Source: Candidatus Aenigmatarchaeota archaeon
GTDB lineage: Archaea > Aenigmatarchaeota > Aenigmatarchaeia > PWEA01 > JACQIF01
Assembly (NCBI GenBank): GCA_016432325.1
Contig: CP066684.1
Span: 512,001 to 576,000 of the forward strand
DNA length: 64,000 bases
Reading direction: 5' to 3'
Below, one piece after another: positions 3,963 through 28,059 of this stretch. Each line of letters begins with the position of its first letter. Position 1 is the first letter of the stretch. The notes below the pieces were generated by a model. That model made no database searches, was not told where the DNA came from, and saw only the letters and a list, made by a program, of their open reading frames with translations. Both the position numbers and the translations under genes were made by a program.

Positions 3963-4274
3963 TGGCGGGCCTGGTGGGATTTTCCATCGTCGCGCCGGTG
4001 TACGGGAACGGAGTTCCCGACATGCCGGAAATGCCCGGCATTTCCGTGCACAGGCGGACTTTTCATGAAAGCTTTGGCGCGTATATCGAGCGAGCGCCGA
4101 TAGGCGCGAGCGCGCCAAAGGTTTCGAACCCACGGCTTCCAGATTGCTTCTTTCATTCGGGACAGTGCCCGTCAATGCTTCCAACGCATGCATTAGAAGT
4201 CTGGCACTCCATTAGCTCCGTTTTCGCCATGCGTTGCCGCCAGCGAAAAGGCGCCCAAGCTGAGTTACAGGCCC
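3963..4274 (-). tRNA. tRNA-Arg(UCU) with three introns (D-loop ~4254-4213; anticodon 37/38 4193-4145; T-loop ~4122-3980)
   Basis: Joined exons give GGGCCTG TA ACTC AGCTTGGATG GAGT G CCAGA CT-TCT-AA TCTGG AAGCC GTGGG TTCGAAT CCCAC CAGGCCC G CCA; bulge-helix-bulge (BHB)-like pairing at the junctions. Confidence 0.9.
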
Positions 4275-15054: not shown

Positions 15055-16083
15055 CTATCCTTTCATGTCCATCAGATAGCGCGCCGGACCCAGACTCCTC
15101 AGGCGCTCGTTTTTGGCAGAAACTTCGCGGGCCATCTGTTCGCGCTCGTTCCGAAGCTTGCGGCGCACACCATCCGTGTAGTTGCTCGCTATCTGCACCG
15201 CGTACCGCGCTCCGTTGACTATCTTATTGATCCCGACTCCTGCCATAGGATAGCCTACTGCGTCACCGTCTTCTGTGAAGTCCGTCAGCATTCTGCACAG
15301 CAGGTTGTCCTCCTGTCGCGCTGAACGCAGCGTCTCGTTGAACACGGGAACTCCTACGACAGGAATGTCCGTTTGCGCGGCCACGCGCTTCGGCAGGTCT
15401 ATCGCCTCTTCGTCCGCCAGCACCACGATGGCAGTCGCGCCTGCGTATTCGATTTCGCGCAGCGGTTCGAGCAGATTGTGCAGATCGGGAGAGGCCACCG
15501 CGAACTCTTCGGAGGAGCCCGCGCCGAGCATTCTCGTAACGTATCTCTTCGCGTCGTTGAACTGTTGTGCTGGTATCTCGGCTTCGCGCGGCGTGATTAT
15601 GCCGACGAACGAATGGGCCTTCGCTTCCACGAGTTCGTCGAGATTCCTATAGTCGCGTATCCTGTTCCGCGCGTCCACATCAGCGAGCGCCGCCATCTGC
15701 GTCGCCAGCAAAGCCGCGCTCTCGGCCTGACCTATGCCAACGGTTCCGACAGGCACGCCGTCAGGCATCTGGATTATAGAATAGAGAGAGTCCATCCCGT
15801 CGGCGGCGCGAGTCCTTACAGGAAGTCCGATGACTGGCAGGACGGTTTCAGACGCTGTCATGCCGGGCAGGTGCGCGGCGCCGCCTGCGGCGGCTATGCT
15901 TGCCCAGAAGCCGTCCTCTTCCAACGCGCGGGCCTCGCTGCCCATCGCGCGCGGCGTTCTGTGCGCCGACAGGACGCGGGCCTCGTAAGAAATCTGCAGC
16001 TTGTCCAGGACGTCGAACACGCCGCTTATGTTAGGAAGGTCCGAATCGCTGCCCATCCTCACTTCTATACGCTGGTTCATCAC
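15055..16083 (-). CDS. purE: N5-CAIR mutase PurE with a second degenerate PurE domain
   Basis: MGSDSD, SAHRTP, AGGAAHLPG, SIIQMPDGVPV; C-half repeats the fold. Confidence 0.9.
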   Translation of the reverse strand: MMNQRIEVRMGSDSDLPNISGVFDVLDKLQISYEARVLSAHRTPRAMGSEARALEEDGFWASIAAAGGAAHLPGMTASETVLPVIGLPVRTRAADGMDSLYSIIQMPDGVPVGTVGIGQAESAALLATQMAALADVDARNRIRDYRNLDELVEAKAHSFVGIITPREAEIPAQQFNDAKRYVTRMLGAGSSEEFAVASPDLHNLLEPLREIEYAGATAIVVLADEEAIDLPKRVAAQTDIPVVGVPVFNETLRSARQEDNLLCRMLTDFTEDGDAVGYPMAGVGINKIVNGARYAVQIASNYTDGVRRKLRNEREQMAREVSAKNERLRSLGPARYLMDMKG

Positions 16084-17246
16084 GCTTTCATCTCCTGCAA
16101 TCTTTTTATCCTTATCGTGGACTCCATCGCCTGTGCGCGGGCAACCACGTCTTCAAGGGGCGCGTCTTGGTTACCGAGAACGGTCAAGTGGCCCAGTTTT
16201 CTCTTGGGCGACGTGGTCTTCTTTCCATAGGTGTGCATGTGGACGCCACGGAAGAATCCAGCTTCCTTCATGTCCACTTCGTATAGTCCTGAATATCCCT
16301 GCGGGCCCAGTATGTTTACCATCACGGCCGGCCGCAGAAGTTCGGTGCTTCCGAGAGGCATCCCTGTTATTGCGCGCAGGTGCTGTTCAAACTGCGACGT
16401 CGGGCAGGCCTCTATCGTGTAGTGTCCCGAGTTGTGCACGCGCGGAGCTATCTCGTTTATCATCACTTCGCCGGCCCTGACGAACATCTCTATACCGAAC
16501 ACTCCGGCGCCTCGCAGCTCCTTCAGGGTTTTCGCGGCCAGCGCTTCCGCTTTTTGCGCGGTGGCCTTGTCCATCCTCGCCGGCACGATGGTGGTGCGAA
16601 GTATGTTGTCCTCGTGTATGTTCTCCCCGACAGGGTACGTGCGTATCTCTCCGTTCGTGCCGCGGGCCGCGATGACAGAGACTTCCTTGTCGAATTCGAT
16701 GTACTGTTCGACCATCAGCCGGCGGCCGTTGAAGTGGGCCAGAGCCGTGTCTATCTCCCTGCTGTCCTTGATCAGATAGTTTCCCCGACCGTCGTATGAA
16801 TCTGTTCGTGCCTTGAGCATCAGTGGGTATCCGAACCATTCGGCCGCGCGCACAATGCTTTCCGAACTTGCAACTTCCCTAAAGTCGGGAACAGGAAGGC
16901 CGCGGCTTTGAAGGAAAGATTTCTGCCTGAACTTGTCCTGTACTATTTGAAGGGTGTGGGAACTCGGATGAACTTTCTTGCCCATATTCTCCAGCTCGTG
17001 CAGCGTCTCGTAGCCGGCCAGCTCTATCTCGTAAGTCATCACATCAGACTGCTCGGCCAGCTCTCGAATCGCCTTGGAATCCTTGAAATCAGCGACTATC
17101 TGTTTCTTCGCGAACGGCGCGGCAGGGCATCCTTCCGTCGGGTCGAGAGTCACGAGTTCAAAAGGAAGTTTCTTGCGCACGATCTCCTCGCCCATCATCC
17201 TGCAGAGCTGTCCGCCGCCGATGACGCCGACTGTGATGGGATGCAT
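16080..17246 (-). CDS. purK: N5-CAIR synthetase PurK
   Basis: IGGGQL, YDGRGN, NEIAPRVHNSGH, RKLGH; start placed at MHPITVG. Confidence 0.95.
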   Translation of the reverse strand: MHPITVGVIGGGQLCRMMGEEIVRKKLPFELVTLDPTEGCPAAPFAKKQIVADFKDSKAIRELAEQSDVMTYEIELAGYETLHELENMGKKVHPSSHTLQIVQDKFRQKSFLQSRGLPVPDFREVASSESIVRAAEWFGYPLMLKARTDSYDGRGNYLIKDSREIDTALAHFNGRRLMVEQYIEFDKEVSVIAARGTNGEIRTYPVGENIHEDNILRTTIVPARMDKATAQKAEALAAKTLKELRGAGVFGIEMFVRAGEVMINEIAPRVHNSGHYTIEACPTSQFEQHLRAITGMPLGSTELLRPAVMVNILGPQGYSGLYEVDMKEAGFFRGVHMHTYGKKTTSPKRKLGHLTVLGNQDAPLEDVVARAQAMESTIRIKRLQEMKA

Positions 17247-17283
17247 GCTCACAGAACGCAGAAAAAAGATATATAGAAGGAAA

Positions 17284-17595
17284 TGGTAGCCCCGGGAGGA
17301 TTTTCTGTTGCGCGCATCCGTTGCCGGAAGGCGTAATTCCATGAACGCTTTCGAGCGTTTACATATTGTCTTTGGCTCGAAAGGGTTCTTCGAACCTCCG
17401 TCCACTGGTCTCTCCTCGCGTATGAAATGAACGCAATCAGAGCCAGTTATCCTTTTGTGTAACCGTTGCGGAAGCGGGCTTCCGTAAACGCTTTTGCGCG
17501 GTGCACGAAACGGCTATGCCGTTTCGGCATGCCGGAAACACGCCGTGTTTCCGTGCAACGTGCGCAGAAGGGTTTGGCCACTAGACTACGGGGCT
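17284..17595 (-). tRNA. tRNA-Gln(CUG) with three introns (D-loop ~17575-17455; anticodon 17436-17410; T-loop ~17388-17301)
   Basis: Joined exons give AGCCCCG TAGTCTAGTGGCCAAGGATA ACTGG CT-CTG-AA CCAGT GGAC GGAGG TTCGAAT CCTCC CGGGGCT A CCA. Confidence 0.9.
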
Positions 17596-17656
17596 ATCCG
17601 AATCCTTTGTCCTGCAACAAGTACTTAAAGAGAATTCTTTCGACGCGCTTCCGGCC

Positions 17657-27971: not shown

Positions 27972-28059
27972 GCCCCAGTGGCTCAGTGGTAGAGCGCTTC
28001 CTTGGTATTCAGGAACGAACAGGAAGAAGTCACGCGTTCAATTCGCGTCTGGGGCTCCA
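27972..28059 (+). tRNA. tRNA-Thr(GGU) with 13-nt canonical intron (28008-28020)
   Basis: GCCCCAG...CTTCC TT-GGT-A[intron]A GGAAG...ACGCG TTCAATT CGCGT CTGGGGC T CCA. Confidence 0.95.

Follow-up and report, generated by a model that had tools for sequence, protein, structure and literature searches.

Positions 17284 to 17595 of the window (the whole 64,000-nt stretch of DNA that was analysed here) hold four short segments that could together form a tRNA, interrupted by three longer segments. The question that this locus raises is whether the four segments are the exons of a working tRNA gene and, if so, how its introns would be removed and where they came from. Our analysis indicates, with a probability of about 90%, that the locus is a functional single-copy tRNA-Gln(CUG) gene of Candidatus Aenigmatarchaeota archaeon (DPANN) that is interrupted by three introns predicted to be spliced by proteins.

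Anatomy of the tRNA-Gln(CUG) locus

The gene is 312 nt long, includes an encoded CCA and occupies 17284-17595 on the minus strand, with its 5′ end at 17595 and the end of the CCA at 17284. In the precursor numbering used here, position n corresponds to window position 17596-n, and all features below are on the minus strand. Exon 1 (17576..17595, 20 nt, precursor 1-20) supplies the 5′ strand of the acceptor stem, U8, A9, the 5′ strand of the D-stem and D-loop nucleotides 14-20a. It is followed by intron 1 (17455..17575, 121 nt), which lies in the D-loop between 20a and 20b, and by exon 2 (17437..17454, 18 nt, precursor 142-159), which contains the end of the D-loop, the 3′ strand of the D-stem, position 26, the 5′ strand of the anticodon stem and loop positions 32-37 including the anticodon CUG. 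Intron 2 (17410..17436, 27 nt) is at the canonical position 37/38. Exon 3 (17389..17409, 21 nt, precursor 187-207) carries position 38, the 3′ strand of the anticodon stem, the 4-nt variable region GGAC, the 5′ strand of the T-stem and T-loop positions 54-59, while intron 3 (17301..17388, 88 nt) lies in the T-loop at 59/60. Exon 4 (17284..17300, 17 nt including CCA, precursor 296-312) contributes U60, the 3′ strands of the T-stem and acceptor stem, the discriminator A73 and the encoded CCA. The coordinates of the seven segments were checked by sequence extraction.

When the four exons were joined, the resulting 76-nt RNA was called tRNA-Gln(ctg) by ARAGORN, with a full cloverleaf in which every stem is paired. 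An earlier reading of this DNA, made without database searches (the sequence-only reading), had claimed a tRNA-Gln(CUG) with three introns of 121, 27 and 88 nt, a claim that hinges on whether the exons can be joined into a cloverleaf. They do join into one, the identity agrees with the ARAGORN call, and the intron lengths and coordinates proved exact on extraction. The cloverleaf has a computed energy of -27.0 kcal/mol and is not the minimum-energy fold of the 76-nt product (-32.3 kcal/mol), and its D-stem contains two G-U pairs. A1-U72 as the first pair, A73 as the discriminator and a variable region of 4 nt are typical of archaeal tRNA-Gln and are identity elements for recognition by GatDE; all three are present in this tRNA, and the genome has a 616-aa GatE-like ORF, the size of a GatE amidotransferase gene.

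A TATA-like box, TTTAAGTA (17622..17629), can be read 27-34 nt upstream of the tRNA 5′ end and is likely the archaeal promoter of the gene. This box and the CTTGTTG that follows it are kept at an equal distance upstream of the tRNA-Gln(CUG) gene of a congeneric genome (contig L002). A T6 tract (17262..17267), 17 nt downstream of the CCA, is a possible archaeal oligo-T terminator. The unspliced gene was missed by both ARAGORN and Rfam on genomic DNA, and a permissive Rfam scan of the locus gave only matches to sucA and isrH, both at chance level.

Split tRNA genes across the genome

The sequence-only reading had proposed a genome-wide search for split tRNA exons as a check. We used a cloverleaf finder that requires a 7-bp acceptor stem, U8, A14, a D-stem and an encoded CCA, together with a 5-bp anticodon stem with U33 and a 5-bp T-stem followed by TT, and that allows introns of any length in the three loops only. 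The finder returned 37 matches in the 875-kb genome, about 34 of which are credible, versus 3 matches in the reversed genome, all of them 476-679 nt long. At least 16 of the approximately 34 tRNA genes found have three introns in the same three loops. The Rfam tRNA model recovered 8 tRNAs in this genome versus approximately 34 by the structure-aware search, which means that standard tRNA finders under-count the tRNAs of DPANN archaea.

Two genes of this kind provide the closest comparisons within the genome. In the tRNA-Gln(UUG) gene (G000:721658-721863, minus strand), the three sites seen in tRNA-Gln(CUG) hold introns of 26, 50 and 54 nt; in the tRNA-Arg(UCU) gene (window 3963-4274), introns of 42, 49 and 143 nt lie at 37/38, at 59/60 and seven nucleotides into the D-loop. 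The sites had been said to match those of tRNA-Arg; positions 37/38 and 59/60 are indeed shared, and the D-loop intron lies exactly 7 nt past the 5′ strand of the D-stem in both tRNA-Arg(UCU) and tRNA-Gln(CUG), although the nominal D-loop position differs (about 19/20 in Arg, 20a/20b in Gln) since the D-loops themselves differ.

Bulge-helix-bulge geometry at the three intron sites

The archaeal bulge-helix-bulge motif (BHB, written hBHBh′) consists of two 3-nt bulges with a 4-bp helix between them, and each strand is cut after the second bulge nucleotide. We applied this geometry by placing each cut 2 nt after a strand of the 4-bp central helix. At intron 1, the D-stem provides the outer helix, with A14 opposite A21. 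GUG/CAC and a G18xA mismatch make up the central helix, AACC/GGUU forms an in-register inner helix, and the cut falls seven nucleotides into the D-loop (20a/20b). Intron 2 uses the anticodon stem as outer helix; its central helix CUCU/GGAG contains four pairs, one of them G-U, flanked by the bulges GA^U and AG^A, and its inner helix lies in a shifted register. At intron 3, the outer helix is formed by the T-stem, and the central helix consists of UUC/GAA with a G57xA mismatch; an in-register inner helix is missing. All three introns thus have an outer helix h, and intron 1 alone has an inner helix h′ in register; in introns 1 and 3 the central helix has 3 of 4 pairs, with the purine-purine mismatch adjoining the 5′ bulge. 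Judged by their predicted pairing, the BHB motifs of introns 1 and 3 are relaxed forms, whereas strict forms are found in the UUG paralogue and the congener. Mismatches in the junction helices had been noted before, and they are the G18xA and G57xA oppositions, together with the missing in-register h′ of introns 2 and 3. A single rule accounts for the three sites: the native stem of the tRNA arm serves as the outer helix, and the intron's 3′ end pairs with the four bases at the start of the loop.

This geometry recurs in other genes. In the related tRNA-Gln genes, a fully paired central helix occurs in 19 of 20 anticodon-loop introns and in 14 of 17 T-loop introns, versus 10 of 100 and 1 of 85, respectively, in shifted registers. 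In this genome, at least 3 of the 4 central-helix pairs form in 23 of 28 T-loop introns and in 22 of 25 anticodon-loop introns, and a mismatch next to the 5′ bulge is the commonest pattern among the 28 T-loop introns (6 exact and 3 with a wobble pair). All three introns of tRNA-Gln(UUG) have 4 central-helix pairs. A lineage-wide preference for these sites had also been suggested; it holds for 37/38 and 59/60, but in the D-arm the tRNA-Gln introns of the class occupy at least three sites (15/16, 20a/20b and 21/22). Some D-arm introns of related tRNA-Gln genes (L006-L061) are only 10-14 nt long, near the minimum length for a BHB.

Because of runs of A, the sequence leaves the cuts ambiguous between 20a/20b and 21/22 for intron 1 and between 57/58 and 59/60 for intron 3. 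The positions 20a/20b and 59/60 are favoured on the basis of the BHB geometry and of intron-free orthologues. The D-arm reconstituted by splicing, GTCT-AGTGGCCAA-GGAT, is identical to that of L020 and L027, two orthologues without introns, and this identity determines the register of intron 1.

Comparison with related tRNA-Gln genes

Exon 1 was matched at 91-100% identity in dozens of related genomes, usually with two copies each; the closest relatives belong to Candidatus Aenigmatarchaeota and are mostly from groundwater. A strict tRNA-Gln parser applied to this genome and its relatives yielded 40 genes with 31 distinct stem sets. Introns are distributed among them in many ways: 12 of the 40 have a D-loop intron only, 8 have introns in the D, anticodon and T loops, 6 have them in the D and anticodon loops, and 2 have none, while D plus T loop, anticodon plus T loop, anticodon loop only and T loop only are found in 3 genes each. 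A1-U72 is invariant across the 31 stem sets, A73 follows the acceptor stem in 40 of 40 genes, and the variable region is 4 nt in 39 of 40 (5 nt in L015). The complete stem pairing of the 40 genes was imposed by the parser and carries no weight, so that compensatory variation alone is informative; double-sided changes are found at 14 of the 21 stem pairs.

The closest homologue is in a genome of the same genus (G001, L002:740-880) and has a D-loop intron only, with none at 37/38 or 59/60. The mature tRNAs are identical at 63 of 76 positions, and 10 of the 13 differences make up five compensated stem pairs; none of the differences breaks a pair, and all 21 cloverleaf pairs of tRNA-Gln(CUG) are intact. 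CAG accounts for 4207 of 5503 Gln codons (76%) in the long ORFs, and no further CUG isoacceptor was found in the genome, which is about 90% complete, so that a second copy is conceivable. Because of the compensated changes, the finding of a single CUG isoacceptor and the predominance of CAG, we consider that the gene is under selection for function. DNA similarity between the gene and the congeneric locus begins exactly at the TATA-like box; the two loci are not syntenic past the promoter, and the congener's 2.3-kb contig has no purK downstream.

Alternative readings of the locus

The locus might hold no tRNA gene at all, if the four exons were a chance assembly or if the region were the 5′ extension of the neighbouring purK-like ORF, since a minus-strand frame (16080-17405, GTG start at 17405) overlaps the 3′ third of the tRNA locus. 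The PurK domains, however, start at residue 58 of this frame, directly after an in-frame ATG at 17246, which marks the 5′ extension as spurious. Chance assembly is excluded by the finder result in the real and the reversed genome and by the recurrence of exon 1 and of the cloverleaf in 40 tRNA-Gln genes, and both exons and promoter are conserved across other genomes. The idea that there is no gene is thus barely conceivable, and both versions of it were rejected on the PurK domain start, the reversed-genome control and the tRNA-Gln homologues of related genomes. As a separate matter, the longest purK-like ORF (16080-17405) enters the tRNA gene by 122 nt, and the purK-like gene really begins at the ATG at 17246; annotation programs may extend the ORF too far and thereby hide the tRNA-Gln(CUG) gene.

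If the tRNA gene is accepted, its D-loop intron might still be excised in a different register, such as with both cuts one nucleotide earlier, which would give a 7-nt D-loop, or its cut sites might be heterogeneous. The 3-bp core helix of intron 1 does fit two registers (p=19/q=143 and p=20/q=142), and both of its bulges are in fact 4x1 internal loops. Against this, a 9-nt D-loop of the form AG(U/C)GG(C/U)CAA is found in the intron-free orthologues and in 30 other genes, and a perfect 4-bp helix arises from the 20a/20b register only in both the congener and the UUG paralogue, which leaves a different cut very improbable. Somewhat less improbable, but still unlikely, is a gene that is decaying or poorly spliced, with its weak central helices in introns 1 and 3 and with CAG read through wobble by tRNA-Gln(UUG), an isoacceptor that the genome does have. 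Introns 1 and 3 have 3 of 4 central-helix pairs, one fewer than in the closest relatives (4 of 4). Forcing each BHB in tRNA-Gln(CUG) costs 4.0-6.5 kcal/mol over the cloverleaf-only fold, compared with 0-3.2 kcal/mol in the UUG paralogue and the congeneric gene. The D-arm BHB was formed neither in the unconstrained minimum-energy fold nor in the cloverleaf-enforced fold, and in the latter G15-C20 pairs with GGUUAC in a different register. In these models, the splicing motifs of tRNA-Gln(CUG) are weaker than those of its closest relatives. The folding cost was not counted against splicing, because forcing the canonical 37/38 BHB itself costs 6.5 kcal/mol. Decay is also opposed by the intact cloverleaf pairs and the five pairs compensated since the split from the congener, by the share of CAG among Gln codons, by the conserved promoter motif, and by the abundance of the same 5′-bulge mismatch among the T-loop introns of this genome, where it is normal. 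A functional, spliced tRNA-Gln(CUG), which the fold of the pre-tRNA also favours with a z score of -7.0 against shuffled sequences, therefore remains the preferred reading.

Origin of the introns

The ends of intron 1 are homologous to the D-loop introns of tRNA-Gln(UUG) (26 nt) and of the congeneric tRNA-Gln(CUG) (65 nt); in each of these two introns the central helix is a perfect 4 bp. The first hairpin of intron 1 is common to both. Alignment with the congeneric orthologue, together with extraction, delimits a 56-nt twin-hairpin insert in intron 1 (17502..17557) that is absent from that orthologue. The insert has a terminal inverted repeat (TGCACG...CGTGCA), forms two hairpins and lies inside the loop of a host hairpin. 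The same twin-hairpin architecture with compensated stems is found in the T-loop intron of tRNA-Arg, and single-hairpin copies of the insert are present elsewhere in the genome; a sequence-only nhmmer search found copies in three places, and further diverged copies were found by BLAST and alignment. Intron 1 would thus be an older D-loop intron that took up a 56-nt twin-hairpin repeat.

Intron 3 aligned to the congeneric D-loop intron with a local score of 32, while shuffled sequences scored 14.6 ± 2.4 and 0 of 1000 reached 32. An nhmmer profile of this intron family matched introns in the T- and D-loops of six other tRNAs, each time in the orientation of the tRNA. The best outside matches of intron 3 are the T-loop introns of the congener's tRNA-Leu(GAG), tRNA-Thr(UGU) and tRNA-Met(CAU), and it is nearer to congeneric T-loop introns than to any intron listed in its own genome, for which the tRNA list is incomplete. 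Intron 3 would accordingly be a copy of an intron family common to other tRNAs. In evolutionary terms, the introns of this gene are fluid. No C/D-box guide motifs were seen in the introns by eye.

Since its split from the congener, the gene may have gained the introns at 37/38 and 59/60 and the 56-nt insert, with the T-loop intron copied from a family that lives in the D- and T-loops of many tRNAs. This history is somewhat less likely than not. Order-level relatives show every combination of introns, and introns 2 and 3 may have been either gained here or lost in the congener. If the gain is real, Aenigmatarchaeota would present a currently active and traceable system of tRNA-intron gain, in which the BHB geometry supplied by the stems decides where introns land and an alpha4-type EndA with a Lys-rich loop tolerates degenerate motifs.

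Two observations concern the spread of the family. The tRNA-Leu(GAG) gene of the congener (L124:150-450, G001:C56) has a D-loop intron and a 135-nt T-loop intron, both of which start with the CCCTTT...hairpin...AAAGCG module of Gln introns 1 and 3, with compensated hairpin stems. The tRNA genes listed by the finder do not account for several copies of the intron-1/3 family, e.g., the one at G000:851679-851742 (plus strand), and these may belong to tRNAs with introns elsewhere, to rRNA or to intergenic DNA.

Splicing machinery and a proposed pathway

The genome encodes a single EndA of 201 aa outside the window (G000:849760-850362, minus strand; L021:1474-2079), with the N-terminal domain PF02778 and the catalytic domain PF01974. 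Its best match is the alpha4 enzyme of M. jannaschii (1a79), and the genome gave one match to PF01974. Pfam and protein searches for a second EndA or a beta subunit gave none, and the neighbouring ORF proved unrelated when compared with PDB sequences. This is in keeping with an alpha4-type EndA, which has a single catalytic subunit gene of about 180-200 aa and no beta subunit. Relative to 1a79, the enzyme has 6 extra residues in a Lys-rich insert between the catalytic Tyr and His, and this insert aligns without gaps to Nanoarchaeum NEQ205 (3iey_A) and to the ARMAN-2 EndA (4fz2). The consensus of the segment, RGV(K/Q)LKKGPKSAKEH, is nearly invariant in 60 Aenigmatarchaeota genomes. Kaneta et al. 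2018 (PMC5829648) describe L3 as a Nanoarchaea/ARMAN-2 loop in the alpha4-type EndAs of several DPANN lineages that is associated with increased tRNA gene disruption. From the alignment, we infer that the insert LKKGPKSAK corresponds to this L3 loop. The enzyme may have a relaxed specificity, as the sequence-only reading had implied, and tolerate weakened motifs. No beta subunit was found, yet most T-loop introns of the genome are without a proper inner helix.

RtcB is also present in the genome. The match lies in a 608-aa open frame (G000:406386-407777, minus strand). This is longer than the usual RtcB, and the frame may contain an extension or insertion.

We propose the following pathway, in which transcription, cleavage, ligation and the tolerance of EndA for weakened motifs are all inferred. 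A 312-nt precursor would be transcribed from the TATA-like box approximately 30 nt upstream. The D, anticodon and T stems would each act as the outer helix of a BHB-like motif, and the first four nucleotides of each loop would pair with the 3′ end of the intron. The 5′ cut would follow the sixth nucleotide of the loop (the seventh in the D-loop, with A14 unpaired), and the 3′ exon would resume one or two nucleotides before the 3′ strand of the stem. The single alpha-type EndA with its Lys-rich insert would make six cuts, after which RtcB would ligate the four exons to give a 76-nt tRNA with its CCA end already in place.

Relation to known systems

Multi-intron tRNA genes are already known from Thermoproteales, ARMAN and Asgard archaea, and tRNA-Gln(CUG) adds one more. 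According to PMC4033280, which cites Sugahara et al. [quoted passage not shown] Like these, the present gene has three BHB-type introns at non-canonical and 37/38 positions and is overlooked by standard finders. It differs in that its host is a DPANN archaeon with a single alpha-type EndA, whereas Thermoproteales have an (alpha-beta)2 enzyme with a Crenarchaea-specific loop, and in that its introns of 88 and 121 nt are long and carry nested hairpin repeats. The same paper, citing Fujishima et al. 2010, reports large-scale tRNA intron transposition in Thermoproteales, with similar introns in different tRNAs and positions. The homology of intron 3 to D- and T-loop introns of other tRNAs resembles that situation; unlike it, the present case involves within-genus presence and absence in one gene, with introns 2 and 3 and the 56-nt insert missing in the congener.

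In ARMAN-2 and other DPANN archaea, disrupted tRNA genes are accompanied by an epsilon2 or an L3-bearing alpha4 EndA, as stated by Fujishima 2011 (PMC3239211) and Kaneta 2018 (PMC5829648). The DPANN host, the relaxed BHB motifs outside the anticodon loop and the insert that aligns with NEQ205 and ARMAN-2 are points of likeness, but the EndA described here is a 201-aa enzyme of the single-subunit type and not the three-unit epsilon2. In Atabeyarchaeia and Freyarchaeia, 92-95% of the tRNA genes have introns, often non-canonical, and more than half have several (PMC11291895). These lineages belong to another superphylum (Asgard); the likeness is in the intron-rich tRNA sets. The two congeneric copies of tRNA-Gln(CUG), which differ by two introns and a nested repeat while their exons are under compensatory selection, offer a clean natural comparison. 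With this comparison and the one geometric rule for the sites, it becomes possible to test, on a few transcripts, how archaeal tRNA introns arise and spread and which substrates a single-subunit EndA accepts.

Other tRNA genes in the window

The window contains a further split tRNA, probably tRNA-Pro(UGG) (33418-33615, plus strand; G000:545418-545615), with introns in the anticodon loop and T-loop. Its T-loop junction has 0 of 4 central-helix pairs at 59/60, so this intron may sit elsewhere. A tRNA-Thr(GGU) gene (27972-28059, plus strand) encodes its CCA and has a canonical intron of 13 nt; in the ARAGORN output it is listed as tRNA-??? with an anticodon of four bases, and it is the sole tRNA of the window detected by Rfam.
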